Shown here: positions 2,658-49,982 of the stretch, one piece after another
How the letters are laid out: every line of letters starts with the position of its first letter
How positions within the stretch are numbered: the stretch's first letter is position 1
Source of the DNA: a virus
Lineage: Duplodnaviria; Heunggongvirae; Uroviricota; Caudoviricetes
Strand: one strand, 5' to 3'
DNA length: 49,982 nucleotides
IMG/VR virus record: IMGVR_UViG_2588253749_000002
Translations under genes and position numbers: made by a program
Notes under the pieces: model-generated
What the model was told of the DNA's origin: nothing
Database searches by the model: none
The model's input: only the letters and a program-made list of their open reading frames with translations

Positions 2658-4665
<2,008 letters not shown>

Positions 4666-12919: not shown

Positions 12920-13230
12920 CGGGCAAAGAGGCAATTATTCATTACCTGGGGACTCATAAGAAATTCTGTGCGCAGGACGTTGCCGCGGTAACAGGCGCAA
13001 CGGTAACCAGCATAAATCAGGCTGCGGCTAAAATGGCACGGGCAGGTCTTCTGGCTATCGAAGGTAAGGTCTGGCGAACGGTGTATTACCGGTTTGCTAC
13101 CAGAGAAAAACGGGAAGGAAAGGTGAGCACGAATCTGATTTTTAAGGAGTGTCGCCAGAGTGCCGCGATGAAACGGGTATTGAGGGTATTGGATTTGCCC
13201 CTATATTTCCAGACATCTGTTATCACTTAA
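12916..13230 (+). CDS. ren: Ren-like protein, 3' end altered by IS2 insertion
   Basis: First 90 or so aa match lambda Ren; reading frame enters the IS2 end at 13190. Confidence 0.8.
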
Positions 13231-14106
13231 CCCATTACAAGCCCGCTGCCGCAGATATTCCCGTGGCGAGCGATAACCCAGCGCACTATGCGGATGCCAT
13301 TCGTTATAATGCTCGAACGCCTCTGCAAGGTTCTTTGCTGCCGTTAACCCGTCTGGTTTGGGCATGATACTGATGTAGTCACGCTTTATCGTTTTCACGA
13401 AGCTCTCTGCTATTCCGTTACTCTCCGGACTCCGCACCGCCGTGTTCTTCGGTTCAAGTCCCAACATCCGGGCGAACTGGCGTGTTTCATTAGCCCGGTA
13501 GCATGAACCATTATCCGTCAGCCACTCCACTGGAGACGACGGAAGATCGTTGCCGAAGCGGCGTTCCACCGCTCCCAGCATGACGTCCTGTACTGTTTCA
13601 CTGTTGAAGCCGCCGGTAGTCACCGCCCAGTGCAGTGCCTCACGATCACAGCAGTCCAGCGCGAACGTGACACGCAGTCTCTCTCCGTTATCACAGCAGA
13701 ACTCGAACCCGTCAGAGCACCATCGCTGATTGCTTTCTTTCACGGCCACTCTGCCTGTATGTGCCCGTTTCGATGGCGGTACAGCAGGTTTTCGCTCAAG
13801 CAACAGCGCATTCTGGCGCATGATCCGGTAAACACGTTTGGCATTGATCGCAGGCATACCATCAAGTTCTGCCTGTCTGCGAAGCAGCGCCCATACCCGA
13901 CGATAACCATACGTGGGCAGCTCTCCGATAACATGGTGTATACGGAGAAGCACATCCGTATCATCAGTGTGACGACTGCGGCGGCCATCCATCCAGTCAT
14001 CGGTTCGTCTGAGAATGACGTGCAACTGCGCACGCGACACCCGGAGACAACGGCTGACTAAGCTTACTCCCCATCCCCGGGCAATAAGGGCGCGTGCGCT
14101 ATCCAC
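13201..14106 (-). CDS. insD: IS2 transposase OrfB (InsD)
   Basis: 301-aa DDE transposase ORF overlapping insC. Confidence 0.9.
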
Positions 14107-14429
14107 TTTTTTGCCCGTCCATATTCAACGGCTTCTTTGAGGAGTTCATTTTCCATCGTTTTCTTGCCGAGCAGGCGCTGGAGTTCTTTAATCTGCTTCA
14201 TGGCGGCAGCAAGTTCAGAGGCAGGAACAACCTGTTCTCCGGCGGCGACAGCAGTAAGACTTCCTTCCTGGTATTGCTTACGCCAGAGAAATAACTGGCT
14301 GGCTGCTACACCATGTTGCCGGGCAACGAGGGAGACCGTCATCCCCGGTTCAAAGCTCTGCTGAACAATTGCGATCTTTTCCTGTGTGGTACGCCGTCTG
14401 CGTTTCTCCGGCCCTAAGACATCAATCAT
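14064..14429 (-). CDS. insC: IS2 transposase OrfA (InsC)
   Basis: 121 aa from [14 protein letters not shown]... Confidence 0.9.
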
Positions 14430-14621
14430 CTGTTCTCCAATGACTAGTCTAAAAACTAGTATTAAGACTATCACTTATTTAAGTGATACTGGTTGTCTGG
14501 AGATTCAGGGGGCCAGTCTAGGTATATAAAAGAACATCAATGGGTACACAATGATGAAACAGGTGAGTTGAGTTCAAACTGTAGTACAATTCTCTCCAGT
14601 TTGAACAGGAAAGAATATTCT

Positions 14622-20174: not shown

Positions 20175-21257
20175 TTAGAACTGGTAAACCATACCTACAG
20201 CAACGATATCATCGGTAGCAACGCCAGATGCTTTCGTGAAATCGCTCTTATCAATCAGGTTGATTTTGTAGTCAACAAAAGTGGACATATTTTTGTTGAA
20301 GTAATAGGTTGCACCTACATCAACATATTCAACCAGGTCCTGATCACCCCAAACACCCAAGTCTTTTCCTTTAGAATGCAGGTAAGCAACGGATGGACGC
20401 AGGCCGAAGTCGAACTGATATTGTGCAACAGCTTCGAAGTTTTGTGCTTTGTTGGCAATATGGTTATTACCAAAAACAGTCATGTTCTGGGTTTCAGAAT
20501 AGGTGGTGGCCAGATAGATGTTGTTCGCATCATATTTCAGACCAGCTGCCCATACTTCAGCATTTTGACCAGAAGCATTCAGACCGTTGTTACCGTAGAT
20601 AACCTGATTATTAGTGCGATCAGATTTAGCATAGGTTGCACCTACACCGAATCCTTCATACTCATAAGTAGTGGAGAAACCGAAACCATCACCATTAGCT
20701 TCAGTTACGTCAGTGCGGTCATTTTTACCCTGATACTGAGCAGCAAAGTTCAGACCATCAACCAGACCAAAGAAGTCGTTGTTACGATAAGTTGCAACAC
20801 CAGTGGTGCGACCAGTCATGAACACATCTGTTTGAGTCCAAGTGTCACCACCGAATTCTGGCAGGACGTCAGTCCACGCACCGATGTCGTATGCTACACC
20901 GTAGTTACGGCCGTAATCGATGGAGCCGTAGTCACCGAATTTCAGGCCAGCGAAGGCAAGACGGGTTTTATCTTTGGAGGAACCTTGAGATTCAGCGCGG
21001 TTGCCTTTGAATTCATATTCCCACTGACCGAAACCAGTCAGTTGATCGTTGATTTGGGTTTCACCTTTGAAGCCAAGACGGGCATAAGTAGTATCACCAT
21101 CATCTGCATCATTAGAGGAGAAGTAGTGCTTAGCATTAACTTTCCCGTACAGATCCAGCTTGTTACTGTCTTTATTATAAATTTCAGCTGCCTGAGCAGA
21201 CATCGCCATCAGTACTGATGCAGCTACAGCAGAAATTGCCACTGTTAATTTTTTCAT
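20175..21257 (-). CDS. nmpC: Outer-membrane porin, NmpC/OmpD type
   Basis: 360 aa from [23 protein letters not shown] (signal peptide), C-terminal ...VGMVYQF; opposite strand to flanking phage late genes. Confidence 0.85.
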
Positions 21258-23047: not shown

Positions 23048-23341
23048 TTATTGTGAGCAATACACACGCGCTTCCAGCGGAGTATAAATGCCTAAAGTAA
23101 TAAAACCGAGCAATCCATTTACGAATGTTTGCTGGGTTTCTGTTTTAACAACATTTTCTGCGCCGCCACAAATTTTGGCTGCATCAACAGTTTTCTCCTG
23201 TCCAATTCCCGAAACGAAGAAGTGATGGGTGATGGTTTCCTTTGGTGTTACTGCTGTCGGTTTGTTTCCAACAGTAAACGTCTGTTGAGCACATCCTGTA
23301 ATAAGCATTGCCAGAGCGGCAGAAAACAACATTTTTTTCAT
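23048..23341 (-). CDS. borD: Bor lipoprotein (serum-resistance family)
   Basis: 97 aa from MKKMLFSAALAMLITGCAQ... (lipobox). Confidence 0.9.
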   Translation of the reverse strand: MKKMLFSAALAMLITGCAQQTFTVGNKPTAVTPKETITHHFFVSGIGQEKTVDAAKICGGAENVVKTETQQTFVNGLLGFITLGIYTPLEARVYCSQ

Positions 23342-43721: not shown

Positions 43722-46700
43722 GTGAATATGGCAGTAAAGATTTCAGGTGTACTGAAAGACGGCACAGGAAAACCGGTACAGAACTGCACAATCCAGCTGA
43801 AAGCAAAACGTAACAGCACCACGGTGGTGGTGAACACGCTGGCCTCAGAAAATCCGGATGAAGCCGGGCGTTACAGCATGGACGTTGAGTACGGTCAGTA
43901 CAGCGTTATTCTGTTGGTGGAAGGATTCCCGCCGTCACATGCCGGGACCATCACCGTGTATGAAGATTCTCAACCCGGTACGCTGAATGATTTTCTTGGT
44001 GCCATGACGGAGGATGATGTCCGTCCGGAGGCACTGCGCCGTTTTGAGCTGATGGTGGAAGAGGTGGCGCGTAACGCGTCCGCGGTGGCACAGAACACGG
44101 CAGCCGCGAAGAAGTCAGCCAGCGATGCCAGCACATCAGCCCGTGAGGCGGCAACCCATGCGACTGATGCTGCGGACTCAGCTCGCGCAGCCAGCACGTC
44201 AGCCGGACAGGCCGCGACGTCGGCTCAGGAGGCTTTTTCCAGCGCAGGAACGGCATCAGCAAAAGCCTCTGAGGCATCAAAAAGTGCTGCCGCTGCAGAG
44301 TCCTCAAAAAGCGCGGCGGCTACCAGTGCCGGTGCGGCGAAAACGTCAGAAACGAATGCGGCAGCGTCACAACAATCAGCAGCCACTTCTGCATCCACCG
44401 CGACCACGAAAGCGTCAGAAGCAGCCACTTCAGCACGGGATGCGTCGGCTTCAAAAGAGGCGGCAAAATCATCAGAAACGAACGCAGCCTCGAGCGCCAG
44501 CAGCGCAGCTTCCTCGGCAACGGCGGCAGCAAATTCTGCGAAGGCGGCAAAAACGTCCGAGACGAACGCTAAGTCTTCTGAAACGGCAGCGGGACAGAGC
44601 GCCTCAGCTGCGGCAGGCTCAAAAACAGCGGCTGCGTCGTCTGCCAGTGCCGCGTCAACAAGTGCCGGGCAGGCCTCAGCCAGTGCCACCGCCGCCGGAA
44701 AATCGGCAGAAAGCGCCGCATCATCCGCTTCAACAGCCACAACGAAGGCTGGCGAAGCCACTGAGCAGGCCACGGCAGCAGCGAGGTCAGCTTCCGCAGC
44801 GAAGACATCCGAAACGAACGCGAAAGCGTCGGAAACCAGCGCAGAATCCTCAAAAACGGCTGCCGCATCGTCAGCCAGTTCGGCGGCGTCATCGGCATCA
44901 TCGGCGTCTGCTTCAAAAGATGAGGCGACCAGACAAGCGTCAGCAGCGAAGAGCAGCGCCACGACGGCATCCACGAAGGCGACAGAGGCAGCTGGCAGTG
45001 CGACGGCGGCAGCTCAGAGCAAAAGTACGGCGGAATCCGCGGCAACGCGCGCCGAGACAGCAGCTAAACGGGCAGAGGATATTGCATCCGCCGTGGCGCT
45101 TGAGGATGCAAGTACGACGAAAAAGGGGATAGTACAGCTCAGCAGTGCGACCAACAGTACGTCTGAAACGCTGGCGGCAACGCCAAAGGCAGTAAAATCA
45201 GCCTATGACAATGCAGAGAAACGTCTGCAGAAAGACCAGAACGGCGCTGATATACCCGATAAGGGACGCTTCCTGAACAACATTAACGCGGTCAATAAAA
45301 CAGACTTTGCTGATAAGCGTGGTATGCGTTATGTGCGGGTTAACGCTCCTGCAGGTGCAACATCTGGAAAATATTACCCTGTTGTTGTTATGCGTTCTGC
45401 TGGCTCAGTAAGCGAACTGGCATCAAGGGTCATTATCACCACGGCAACGCGAACTGCAGGCGATCCTATGAATAACTGCGAGTTTAACGGATTTGTTATG
45501 CCTGGTGGCTGGACTGACAGGGGGCGTTATGCTTATGGAATGTTCTGGCAATATCAAAACAATGAACGAGCCATCCACTCAATAATGATGAGTAATAAGG
45601 GCGATGATTTGCGCTCTGTGTTCTATGTTGATGGCGCTGCTTTCCCTGTTTTTGCGTTTATCGAAGATGGCCTGTCAATATCCGCACCTGGTGCTGATCT
45701 CGTTGTTAATGATACGACCTATAAGTTTGGGGCAACAAATCCAGCGACTGAATGTATCGCGGCGGACGTTATCCTTGATTTTAAGAGTGGGCGTGGTTTT
45801 TATGAGTCTCATTCGTTAATCGTTAACGATAACTTGTCGTGCAAAAAACTTTTTGCCACAGACGAAATTGTAGCGCGTGGTGGTAATCAGATTCGAATGA
45901 TAGGTGGGGAGTATGGTGCATTATGGCGTAATGATGGCGCTAAAACTTACCTGCTGCTTACCAATCAAGGTGATGTTTATGGTGGCTGGAATACATTAAG
46001 ACCGTTTGCTATTGATAACGCAACCGGCGAACTGGTTATTGGAACCAAACTGTCCGCAAGTCTGAACGGTAATGCATTAACAGCAACAAAGCTGCAAACG
46101 CCAAGACTGGTTTCTGGTGTTGAGTTTGATGGTTCCAAAGATATTACTTTAACCGCCGCGCATGTGGCTGCTTTTGCCAGAAGGGCAACGGATACATATG
46201 CCGATGCGGATGGTGGCGTTCCCTGGAATGCCGAATCAGGCGCTTACAATGTCACCCGCTCTGGCGACAGCTATATTCTGGTTAACTTCTATACCGGAGT
46301 CGGAAGTTGCCGGACCTTGCAGATGAAGGCGCATTACAGAAATGGTGGTCTGTTCTACCGTTCTTCAAGAGACGGTTATGGTTTTGAGGAAGACTGGGCA
46401 GAAGTTTATACCTCGAAAAATCTTCCACCAGAAAGCTACCCAGTCGGCGCACCAATCCCGTGGCCATCAGATACCGTTCCGTCTGGTTATGCCCTGATGC
46501 AGGGGCAGACTTTTGACAAATCTGCTTACCCGAAACTTGCAGCCGCTTATCCGTCAGGCGTGATCCCTGATATGCGTGGCTGGACGATTAAGGGAAAACC
46601 TGCCAGTGGTCGGGCCGTATTGTCTCAGGAACAGGACGGCATTAAATCGCACACCCACAGCGCCAGCGCATCCAGTACGGATTTGGGGACGAAAACCACA

Positions 46701-47090
46701 TCGTCGTTTGATTACGGCACTAAATCCACGAATAACACCGGGGCGCATACGCACAGTGTGAGCGGCTCTACAAACTCGGCTGGAGCACACACACACTCAC
46801 TAGCCAACGTGAACACGGCTAGTGCTAACTCCGGTGCTGGTAGTGCATCAACAAGATTGTCTGTTGTGCATAATCAAAACTATGCAACATCATCCGCTGG
46901 CGCACATACCCACTCACTGTCCGGCACTGCTGCAAGCGCAGGTGCACACGCACATACTGTCGGTATTGGTGCTCATACGCACTCGGTTGCGATTGGCTCA
47001 CATGGACACACCATCACCGTTAACGCTGCTGGTAACGCGGAAAACACCGTCAAAAACATCGCATTTAACTATATTGTGAGGCTTGCATAA
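43722..47090 (+). CDS. stf: Side tail fibre protein Stf
   Basis: 1122-aa ORF; lambda Stf-like N-terminus ([17 protein letters not shown]...), long Ala/Ser/Thr-rich repeats, C-terminal HxH repeats. Confidence 0.85.
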
Positions 47091-47674
47091 TGGCATTCAG
47101 AATGAGTGAACAACCACGGACCATAAAAATTTATAATCTGCTGGCCGGAACTAATGAATTTATTGGTGAAGGTGACGCATATATTCCGCCTCATACAGGT
47201 CTGCCAGCAAACAGTACCGATATTGCACCGCCAGATATTCCGGCTGGCTTTGTGGCTGTTTTCAACAGTGATGAGGCATCGTGGCATCTCGTTGAAGACC
47301 ATCGGGGTAAAACCGTCTATGACGTGGCTTCCGGCGACGCGTTATTTATTTCTGAACTCGGCTCATTACCGGAAAATGTCACCTGGTTATCCCCGGAAGG
47401 GGAGTTTCAGAAGTGGAACGGCACAACCTGGGTGAAAGATGCAGAAGCAGAAAAACTGTTCCGGATCCGGGAGGCGGAAGAAACAAAAAATAGCCTGATG
47501 CAGGTAGCCAGTGAGCATATTGCGCCACTTCAGGATGCTGCAGATCTGGAAATCGCAACGGAGGGAGAAACCTCGTTGCTGGAAGCCTGGAAAAAGTATC
47601 GGGTGTTGCTGAACCGTGTTGATACATCAACTGCACCTGATATTGAGTGGCCTGCTGTCCCTGTTATGGAGTAA
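47090..47674 (+). CDS. tfa: Tail fibre assembly chaperone Tfa
   Basis: 194-aa ORF immediately after stf; lambda Tfa-like. Confidence 0.85.
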
Positions 47675-47777: not shown

Positions 47778-48566
47778 TTAAGCATCACGTATTGCCAATC
47801 TGATTTTTGACTGATACCAATTGGGGCCTTCTGCAATTATTTCTTCCTCAACATGCATGATGGGATGCATTTCAATTTCAGAGTTTTTGACTTTCAGATC
47901 TAGTCCATGTTTTTTTGAAATTTGTAAAACTTCATTTTTGAAATCCTTATCTGCGAAAGGTGAAATCCTTATTTCTTCCAACAGATTATTAAGAGATACA
48001 GGGACTAGTTTTCCCTTTACAGGTGGAGTGTTAAAGGTATTCTCTTGAAAAATAGCTCTAAACTCTTTTTCGTATTCGAAAGATGGTCTCTTGTTAAAGA
48101 ATACATCTGATTCTGGATTGTATTGTTTTATCCAGAAATTTTTGACGTATTTTACGTGTTTTAATTGTAGTTTGTTTAGATTATTATTTTCAAGTTGGCT
48201 TTGGAGGTTTTTTTTCTTTGATTTTATGACAACGCCTTTAGCGGGGTTTTTACAATACAGCTTCCACATAGCTTCAGATTCATGTTCGTTACAATGCCAG
48301 CAACTTATATATGTCCTCTCGCTTATTTCCTTAAGTGTCTTTAAATTGAATGCCATGAAAGGATCTAAGTCCATGCCGGCACCATAAGTAGCGCATAGTT
48401 TTTCCTGTGTCTCAATGAATTTTTTATAGCCAGTATGTCCCCAAGCAAATTCACCTTCGAACGGATCTTCAAAATTTTTTGCTGAGCAAAAAAATAAAGC
48501 ATTTTGTTCGAGTAACATAGAGAATTTCTCTATGTCAAGGTATCGCCATATATACTCAGTGTGCAT
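47778..48566 (-). CDS. Hypothetical protein, DUF2971-like (tentative)
   Basis: Track ORF 47778-48767; probable start ATG 48564-48566 with AAGGAG RBS (262 aa); motif FEDPFEGEF; AT-rich. Confidence 0.5.
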   Translation of the reverse strand: MHTEYIWRYLDIEKFSMLLEQNALFFCSAKNFEDPFEGEFAWGHTGYKKFIETQEKLCATYGAGMDLDPFMAFNLKTLKEISERTYISCWHCNEHESEAMWKLYCKNPAKGVVIKSKKKNLQSQLENNNLNKLQLKHVKYVKNFWIKQYNPESDVFFNKRPSFEYEKEFRAIFQENTFNTPPVKGKLVPVSLNNLLEEIRISPFADKDFKNEVLQISKKHGLDLKVKNSEIEMHPIMHVEEEIIAEGPNWYQSKIRLAIRDA

Positions 48567-48779
48567 GATAGCTCCTTGCAATATAACTATTTCTATCTGT
48601 TCATTTGTACTTAAAAAGGATTGAGTAGCCTGAACAGTTCTATCCGTAAATATACCAGATAGAAGAGTTGTACAATAACAAATCCTCCGTACAAGAACCA
48701 GCCATAATAGTCTGGTTCTTAAGGTTTTTTTTGTTCTAGGGGGTTTTAACCTACGATTCGTCCCCATATCGGCGATAAA

Positions 48780-49982
48780 TCAGGCCTGTACCAACGCTTC
48801 TGTTTCTGTGAGTGAAATCTGATAGCATTTTACTGCCTCAGCAAAGGCGTGCGCGGCATCTGCATTTGATACCATATATTCTTCAGTTACCCCTGTTTGA
48901 GAATGGAAAGTAATATTTCCATAAATGCAAATAGGGATTTGGTAGTTATCTTTAAAACGACGGTCTGGTGAGCCATTCTTATTCGTTTTCGCCCATGTAT
49001 AACCATCTATGCGTGAGTCACTGGGAACACCTTCTTCCTCATGGAATCTTAGATATTCTGAACTAATTTGTAATTCGCGTAAATCAATCAGAGCGAATGC
49101 TCCATCAGCTCGTGGTATGACTGCAACTCCAGGATAAAGCAAAATATCGTCTCCATTCACATTTTCAAACCTCATCGCACGCCCTGTAAATTGAATGAGA
49201 TCTGTTGAACTAAAATCAAAGGTAACTGGGTGACGATTAACAGACCGGGTTGCTAATGTTCTTTCAGCAAACTGGTCTGTAGCTTTATCTGCAGTAATAT
49301 CCCATTTTTTGACACTCGATTTTAACATATCAAATGCATGGACCATCGCTGCATATGCGCGCTGTGAAGCATCACTGCTCTCGAATGTTATGGCTATTTT
49401 TGTGCTGTCTTCCCATGAAACTAGGCGAGATATCTCAGCTTGGGTTAGGGGGAGTAGTGTCTCAAGTTCTGCGATGCGTCGTTTGTAAAACCAACGGAAT
49501 AGACTTGATTTGCGTCGAGCCAGCTCGCTTTTTTGTTTTGATTCTTCGGCAAGAGCCTCTTGAAGATCTGCTTTTATCTCTGCTCTTTGTTCTCGTGCTT
49601 TAGCAATCAAATCTCGTAAAGGTAAAAGGGAGGTACTTGTAAGGACTTCTACCGAAGCGCTGGATATTTCATTCATGCCAGCTACAGGCATATATATTTT
49701 AGCGTTCGATGGTGTGTTTTCTGGAGATGACCCAGACTCCAAATGAGGTTCTGTAGGGGCTGGATTTAATGGATTGGTAACTGAGTATCCATCATCATAG
49801 GGCAAGGTAGGTGTAGTATAAGATAAGCCTGTGCCCGGTAATCCGACAGTTGCTCTAACCCCTTTTTTACCAACATTGACAGTTGCGCCAGGCACGCCAA
49901 TGCTTGCACTTATTCCACGCTTGCCAATGTTGAGTCGAACGCCAGGAAATAGAGTAAAGGTTTGTCTGAAACGAAGAGACAT
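48780..49982 (-). CDS. Hypothetical protein with N-terminal DUF4236-like repeats
   Basis: 400-aa ORF, start codon is the last 3 nt of the window; three G-x-x-x-N-[IV]-G-K-[RK]-G repeats, Pro-rich linker, predicted coiled coil, uncharacterised C-terminal domain. Confidence 0.55.
   Translation of the reverse strand: MSLRFRQTFTLFPGVRLNIGKRGISASIGVPGATVNVGKKGVRATVGLPGTGLSYTTPTLPYDDGYSVTNPLNPAPTEPHLESGSSPENTPSNAKIYMPVAGMNEISSASVEVLTSTSLLPLRDLIAKAREQRAEIKADLQEALAEESKQKSELARRKSSLFRWFYKRRIAELETLLPLTQAEISRLVSWEDSTKIAITFESSDASQRAYAAMVHAFDMLKSSVKKWDITADKATDQFAERTLATRSVNRHPVTFDFSSTDLIQFTGRAMRFENVNGDDILLYPGVAVIPRADGAFALIDLRELQISSEYLRFHEEEGVPSDSRIDGYTWAKTNKNGSPDRRFKDNYQIPICIYGNITFHSQTGVTEEYMVSNADAAHAFAEAVKCYQISLTETEALVQA

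Follow-up and report, generated by a model that had tools for sequence, protein, structure and literature searches.

Two adjacent cargo genes of an Escherichia coli B7A prophage as probable independently acquired single-gene morons

The IMG/VR record IMGVR_UViG_2588253749_000002 is a viral DNA stretch of 49,982 nucleotides (nt), which we call the window, and its sequence is identical to the chromosome of Escherichia coli B7A (NZ_CP035812). Its last part holds two minus-strand genes behind the tail operon: gene B (47778-48566), encoding a 262-amino-acid (aa) DUF2971 protein that is a predicted DarT-like ADP-ribosyltransferase, and gene A (48780-49982), encoding a 400-aa DUF4236-family protein. 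Our reading, to which we give a probability of about 0.7, is that these are two unrelated single-gene morons that were independently acquired and now sit stacked in the tfa-to-attR region of the lambda-like B7A prophage. Throughout, coordinates are positions in the window, gene coordinates include the stop codon, and the features of the two genes and of their spacer lie on the minus strand.

The initial annotation had presented the pair as a two-gene cassette and as a candidate undescribed accessory or defence module. Cloned as one system, the pair would misassign any phenotype, and this false lead is now removed. Gene B provides an E. coli-native, tractable member of DUF2971 and of the candidate defence family PDC-S31; it could show DarT-like toxin action without an antitoxin, together with the target of that action. 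Gene A, from an uncharacterised but very common family, holds the remaining novelty. It is the less understood piece, that is, a widespread and strongly conserved moron in classic lambdoid cargo slots, and a phenotype for it would annotate thousands of proteins.

Separate occurrence of genes A and B

Each gene is found alone in other genomes. A Klebsiella copy of gene A (93% aa identity) stands by itself between ssrA and the tail-fibre end of a different prophage; in Serratia and Paracoccus, too, the gene is unaccompanied, in a neighbourhood of core genes. Likewise, Enterobacter has a copy of gene B (81% aa identity) with no gene A next to it, placed behind ogr where a P2-like prophage ends. 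Within E. coli itself, gene A at 76% identity was detected in 13 further genomes where gene B was not. One of these was examined, MFDS1019527 (locus L160, 5988-7175); its diverged gene A, in antisense orientation, has the slot between the Q antiterminator and the holin of another lambdoid prophage to itself.

The edges of DNA homology fall between the two genes. Between B7A and Klebsiella, homology covers gene A, 146 base pairs (bp) upstream and 90 bp downstream only, and it stops in the spacer; for gene B, homology with Enterobacter runs from 48584 to 47778 only. The spacer (48567-48779), put at about 210 bp at first and measured here as 213 bp, thus holds the junction of two independent homology blocks (near 48690). 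Base composition points the same way. Gene B has 34.3% guanine plus cytosine (GC), the spacer has 36.6% and gene A has 43.0%, compared with 51.4% for positions 1-47674 of the window, in agreement with the earlier remark that both genes are lower in GC than the flanking phage genes. We counted the gap between the genes themselves (34% versus 43%) as evidence for independent origin.

Co-occurrence was assessed from both sides. A genome scan with the gene B alignment, in which one genome per species was used and 80 loci were kept, found a gene A relative within 8 kilobases (kb) at none of these 80 loci. Among 56 viral contigs with a gene A relative, 51 lack gene B, and the five that have both are E. 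coli copies at least 99% identical. In complete E. coli genomes, the same 122 of 5426 carry both genes, always adjacent and always behind tfa, in prophages at three or more sites (torT, tRNA-Pro/yejM and icd) with differing cargo downstream. Conserved co-occurrence across taxa, as expected of a two-gene system, was therefore not found. Given the solitary copies, the separate homology blocks and the lack of co-occurrence elsewhere, we take the adjacency to be linkage within one E. coli prophage lineage. The cassette of the initial annotation, which had itself proposed co-occurrence in other genomes as a check, does not survive this comparison, as none was seen outside that lineage.

The two genes also differ in how well they are kept. 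Gene B contains a run of eight adenines (48208-48215, codons 117-120), which is the site of a -1 frameshift in the tRNA-Pro/yejM lineage: all five copies checked there have seven adenines for eight and a stop at aa 130, whereas gene A is intact beside them. We counted this as further evidence for independence. The frameshifted lineage includes ST131 O25b:H4, and one copy has a second indel; either a single ancestral loss or slippage-prone switching could account for the pattern. More broadly, some 10 to 12 of 40 evenly sampled E. coli matches to gene B have an indel or no proper annotation, and about 70% are intact.

Such losses bring up the reading that genes A and B are decaying, functionless passengers of recombination, with their low GC merely a mark of foreign origin. 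In its favour, a fair share of the E. coli copies of gene B are pseudogenes (with the frameshift verified in five), and insertion sequence (IS) scraps and pseudogenes lie in the same cargo region. On the other hand, none of the E. coli copies of gene A that were checked is disrupted, and the gene A protein keeps 65-93% identity across 960 detected homologues, whose hosts range from Klebsiella, Serratia, Yersinia and Pectobacterium to the alphaproteobacteria Paracoccus and Phaeobacter. The Paracoccus gene has 59.5% GC, near the composition of that genome, and is therefore not a recent arrival. This conservation from Enterobacterales to alphaproteobacteria, taken with the Paracoccus composition, argues for long purifying selection on gene A. 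The B7A gene B, for its part, keeps all invariant residues of its catalytic core. We thus consider the passenger explanation unlikely for the pair.

A single two-gene module, acting in defence or as toxin and antitoxin, appears quite unlikely as well. Here the DUF4236 protein would, for example, serve as a sensor of infection or as an antidote to the DUF2971 toxin, which would suit the general knowledge of DarTG, where DarT-type toxins normally require an antitoxin. The genes are indeed strictly adjacent in all 122 E. coli genomes with gene B, across several integration sites, and they share one orientation with no clear terminator or promoter between them. Yet each occurs alone elsewhere at 76-93% identity, the survey of 80 genome loci and 56 viral loci described above speaks against a lasting association, DNA homology comes in two distinct blocks, the genes have unlike GC contents, and gene B is lost by frameshift in copies where gene A is kept whole.

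Under the preferred reading of two independent morons, gene A would travel in a self-contained unit of some 1.4 kb, which takes in about 146 bp before the gene and, after it, about 90 bp that end in a hairpin. This unit would move alone between prophage ends, other moron slots and chromosomal sites. The ATG of gene A is the final base of the window, and its promoter therefore lies outside. The hairpin (48692-48721) has a stem of about 13 bp and no U-tract; it coincides with the end of the Klebsiella homology block and may be a terminator, although the whole 120-nt stretch around it has a folding z-score of only -1.97. Scans for consensus promoters and terminators came out at chance level. In particular, the promoter-like hexamers once described for the spacer could not be recovered, since nine were found against 8.5 expected from shuffled sequence and none of them, at the threshold used, lies in the spacer. 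A transposon-like mechanism for gene A was considered and is not supported: homology stops at one place in Klebsiella and at another in Serratia, and no repeats were seen where the blocks end.

Gene B, a predicted ADP-ribosyltransferase

The open reading frame (ORF) of gene B can be read from two starts. RefSeq/PGAP places the start at 48518 (246 aa), and the initial annotation had chosen ATG 48566 with a strong ribosome-binding site. The latter is better supported because Enterobacter homology begins at 48584, close homologues are 262 aa long, a conserved N-terminal WRY strand lies upstream of the RefSeq start, and a Shine-Dalgarno sequence (AAGGAG, 48573-48578) sits 6 nt upstream of the ATG, inside the Enterobacter homology.

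The protein matches Pfam DUF2971 (PF11185) over aa 100-170 with 30.7 bits (gathering cutoff 22, E 8e-7). It also matches phrog_34615 and four PADLOC profiles of PDC-S31, a computational phage-defence candidate, with E values of 2.5e-20 (aa 80-233), 2.7e-11, 2.1e-8 and 7.1e-8. The FEDPFEGEF motif, which had first suggested DUF2971, forms a loop at aa 32-40 (48447-48473); in an alignment of 50 homologues, D34 is invariant and E37 nearly so. Y140, K159, E166, E168 and R170 are invariant in the same alignment, and all five are retained in B7A. E166-K-E168 (48063-48071), at the start of the strand formed by residues 168-174, is an invariant ExE motif of the kind known as ADP-ribosyltransferase motif III, and Y140 supplies the aromatic residue of motif II; these assignments follow PMC12522546 and the strand order of the model, not a superposition. 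The statement that no catalytic motif is recognisable was thus mistaken for gene B.

A structure model built from the 50 homologues has a predicted local distance difference test score (pLDDT) of 92.8 and the core fold of an ADP-ribosyltransferase. Its top structural matches are intracellular, DNA-modifying DarT toxins and not exotoxins. DarT, the toxin of DarTG, ADP-ribosylates thymidine or guanosine in single-stranded DNA. The likeness is structural: sequence identity to DarT is only 8-14%, no PDB sequence is matched at the level of hidden Markov models, and gene B has large helical inserts. It agrees with a published prediction for DUF2971 as a DarT-like, DNA-acting ADP-ribosyltransferase with a conserved Tyr and an ExE motif (PMC12522546).

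Gene B also differs from DarTG in standing alone. There is no macrodomain (DarG) neighbour beside its Enterobacter and E. coli copies, nor another conserved partner. All-against-all clustering of ORFs within 3 kb of the 80 loci, in a search for a conserved partner or antitoxin, gave no family present in more than six loci, which speaks against a DarG-like antitoxin. For gene B, 68 homologues were detected. Its subfamily is found in environmental bacteria and archaea; plasmids, among them some of Bacillus and of haloarchaea, and a single Acinetobacter phage also carry members. Some relatives (P0026, P0029, P0031 and P0036) begin with about 80 additional residues in which cysteines are spaced CxxC...CxxC; this extension, probably a zinc ribbon, is absent from the E. 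coli protein. In several Lachnospiraceae loci (e.g. L048 6612-7562 and L057 6090-6680), the ORFs beside the DUF2971 relative may be AbiEii and AbiEi; if this identity is right, they hint at a defence-island setting.

Two known entities bear on function. The 'S' in PDC-S31 we take to mean a single-gene candidate, in line with PADLOC naming, and gene B both matches its profiles and stands alone in other genomes. A literature search found no publication on PDC-S31 or on the protein accessions. Aristaios (protein pUCCL641_199), which has 316 aa and is encoded on a Lactococcus plasmid, is a DUF2971 family member and an experimentally validated single-gene anti-phage system (PMC11381338). It resembles gene B in family, in being a single gene on a mobile element and in its predicted ADP-ribosyltransferase fold. 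Host and phages are different, however, and the likeness is known from Pfam membership only; tblastn of a plasmid collection gave no Lactococcus plasmid match.

We conclude, from sequence and model, that gene B probably encodes a stand-alone, cytoplasmic ADP-ribosyltransferase of a known candidate defence family. With its DarT-like fold, intact ExE motif and no conserved partner, it would act alone, most likely as an anti-phage toxin that protects the lysogen. On infection, the protein would transfer ADP-ribose from NAD+ to a target, either nucleic acid or protein, and so abort phage replication; this role and the target are what we infer. Gene B is the better defence candidate of the two genes. 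The earlier suggestion of an anti-phage function thus stands as plausible for gene B, and fails for the pair as one system. Nor is gene B undescribed, as the PDC-S31 match, the DUF2971 prediction and Aristaios were already known.

Gene B as a lysogenic-conversion or virulence enzyme, which would ADP-ribosylate targets in a eukaryotic host or competitor and not act on phages, is very unlikely: B7A is an enterotoxigenic human isolate and about 18% of DUF2971 proteins are predicted effectors (PMC12522546), but gene B has no signal peptide- or membrane helix-like stretch (at most 13 hydrophobic residues in any 19-residue window), genes for secretion or delivery do not recur around it, the DarT toxins that it most resembles in structure are intracellular, the subfamily is spread over environmental bacteria, archaea and plasmids, and the gene occupies phage moron slots, including the P2-like prophage end just after ogr.

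Gene A, a conserved DUF4236-family protein

Gene A is assigned to DUF4236 by its N-terminus. Pfam DUF4236 (PF14020) matches aa 3-56 (49815-49976) with 76.1 bits (gathering cutoff 27, E 3e-21), in line with the initial annotation, and phrog_17982 matches the full length (E 6e-194). Both are labels without a function, and the C-terminal domain of about 200 aa lies outside Pfam. The AF2 (AlphaFold2) model (pLDDT 87.8) shows, in order, a six-strand meander, a disordered linker, a helical hairpin and an alpha/beta domain.

The DUF4236 domain is a basic beta-meander (model strands at residues 7-60) with eight K/R and no D/E residues, made of 9-residue Gly-bounded units. Three tandem repeats of the form G-x-x-x-N-[IV]-G-K-[RK]-G had been described here, but only the units at aa 14 and aa 32 fit this pattern exactly. 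Four 9-residue units (at aa 14, 23, 32 and 41), i.e. two 18-residue hairpin repeats, describe the region better. The Pro-rich linker noted before (aa 57-105, 49668-49814) has nine Pro in 49 residues and is probably disordered: block-mean pLDDT is about 46-51 for aa 61-90, with aa 63-74 below 50. It leads into a long antiparallel helical hairpin (aa 117-193, 49404-49634), and the charged, coiled-coil-like segment of the initial annotation was found here as a charged helix starting at aa 130.

The conserved C-terminal alpha/beta domain (aa 195-400, 48783-49400) has no Pfam, NCBIfam or PADLOC model and no structural match in the PDB. Its invariant residues cluster in a loop, W-x-K-x-N-K-[DN]-G-S-P-D-R-R-F, and across the gene A alignment they comprise W227, R241, W330, N334, G337, D340, R342, N346, G364 and S372. 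Against the defence profiles of PADLOC-DB v2, gene A gave no family at E <= 1.

The family is large. Residues 100-400 (helical hairpin plus C-terminal domain) match 2898 cluster representatives at 50% identity, and on viral contigs many copies are found right at the border of the predicted prophage. Numerous phages have the 55-aa DUF4236 domain by itself, among them large phages of Klebsiella (about 140 kb) and Brevundimonas (about 350 kb). A search with a 60-aa DUF4236 domain as the lone query was discarded, because it returned only proteins of up to 105 aa and said nothing about domain architecture. To look for conserved genes near distant gene A relatives, ten neighbours were also compared with Pfam; they gave unrelated matches (helix-turn-helix, SLT, ThsB-TIR and tape measure protein). 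In the literature, one paper mentions DUF4236, merely noting it in a prophage remnant.

Longer relatives offer a clue to location. Among 65 of them, 32 carry SH3_3 (bacterial SH3) and three carry PG_binding_1, in each case at the C-terminus, and a membrane helix is predicted between the conserved domain and these additions. The conserved part would therefore be cytoplasmic and next to the envelope, followed by the membrane helix and then, in the periplasm, by an SH3b or peptidoglycan-binding domain. Among relatives of 550-700 aa, many (e.g. P0202, P0221, P0235 and P0257) have one predicted membrane helix at about aa 420-460 plus SH3_3/SH3_4 or PG_binding_1; others (P0249, P0252 and P0314) have long C-terminal extensions with no family match. 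The B7A protein has neither the membrane helix nor the SH3 domain. With low confidence, we guess at an envelope-proximal role of gene A in the lysogen, e.g. in exclusion or defence. That gene A is the founding member of an unrecognised single-gene prophage function is a tentative idea that we think possible, though doubtful; for example, the protein might work from the cytoplasmic side of the envelope in superinfection exclusion or abortive infection.

Several points weigh against the reading of two independent morons with these roles. Within E. coli the genes are always adjacent, in 122 of 5426 genomes and at three attachment sites or more, and a lineage-specific functional link between them may be compatible with the sequence. 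In addition, with no U-tract at the hairpin and no promoter found in the spacer, gene B could be co-transcribed with gene A in E. coli. Phage defence by this DUF2971 subfamily is a prediction, PDC-S31 is a computational candidate only, and Aristaios is too distant to be detected by tblastn. The reading also gives no account of what would restrain a free-standing ADP-ribosyltransferase toxin that has no antitoxin. Finally, the function proposed for gene A is an indirect guess of low confidence.

The prophage and its cargo interval

The window spans a complete lambda-like prophage, with the integrase gene beside torS at one end and the final base at the other; in B7A, the prophage site is between torS and torT. 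The 3' end of the tail operon consists of stf (43722-47090) and tfa (47090-47674). The ORF list bears out the end of tfa at 47674 and the two minus-strand genes convergent with the tail operon, as first annotated. Past the window end, the prophage goes on in B7A with a DUF6602/PD-(D/E)xK-like gene, an IS scrap and a 261-aa orphan, up to the torT border. The right border lies just before torT, where the sequence resembles the right ends of lambdoid phages and a lambda-type att arm was found immediately ahead of torT. No common attL/attR core sequence of 11 nt or longer was detected, and the border is set by the similarity to lambdoid phage ends.

Genes A and B are thus inside the prophage, in the tfa-to-attR cargo region that is the equivalent of the lambda b-region. 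Related prophages carry other cargo in this interval, such as DUF6602, DinI-like, GIY-YIG-like or DUF3800 genes. This variation, together with the att arm before torT, upholds the earlier description of the genes as accessory cargo in a variable interval.

Genes A and B resemble known morons of lambdoid and P2 phages (bor, lom, stx and the defence genes of P2/P4 hotspots) in being self-contained, in occupying variable slots and in a GC content that departs from that of the phage. The slots are behind tfa for both genes, between Q and the holin for gene A, and after ogr for gene B; the Q-holin slot is the position of stx in Stx phages. The products of genes A and B are unrelated to those of the classic morons, and their expression in the lysogen is presumed.

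The remaining observations concern the rest of the prophage. Beyond the window, the DUF6602 protein (459 aa; locus L001, 14933-16312) has an N-terminus similar to a PADLOC PD-(D/E)xK nuclease profile (E 2e-9), and the 261-aa protein (locus L001, 16822-17607) has no family match. Two other genes are moron-like: an ompC-type porin gene (20175-21257), which lies in antisense orientation with the Q-like antiterminator quuD on one side and the lysis genes on the other, and, behind the lysis cassette, iss (23048-23341), which encodes a bor-like lipoprotein. IS100 (istA/istB, 2726-4527) and IS2 (13202-14430) are inserted in the early region. The presence of emrE and ybcK, together with a DLP12-type run (ybcN, ninE, ybcO, rusA, quuD, essD, rrrD, rzpD and nohD), shows that the prophage is mosaic; it is possibly defective. 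The stf product contains a long Ala/Ser/Thr-rich low-complexity stretch, which gives rise to an AT skew of up to 0.45 and about 60% GC around 44000-45200.

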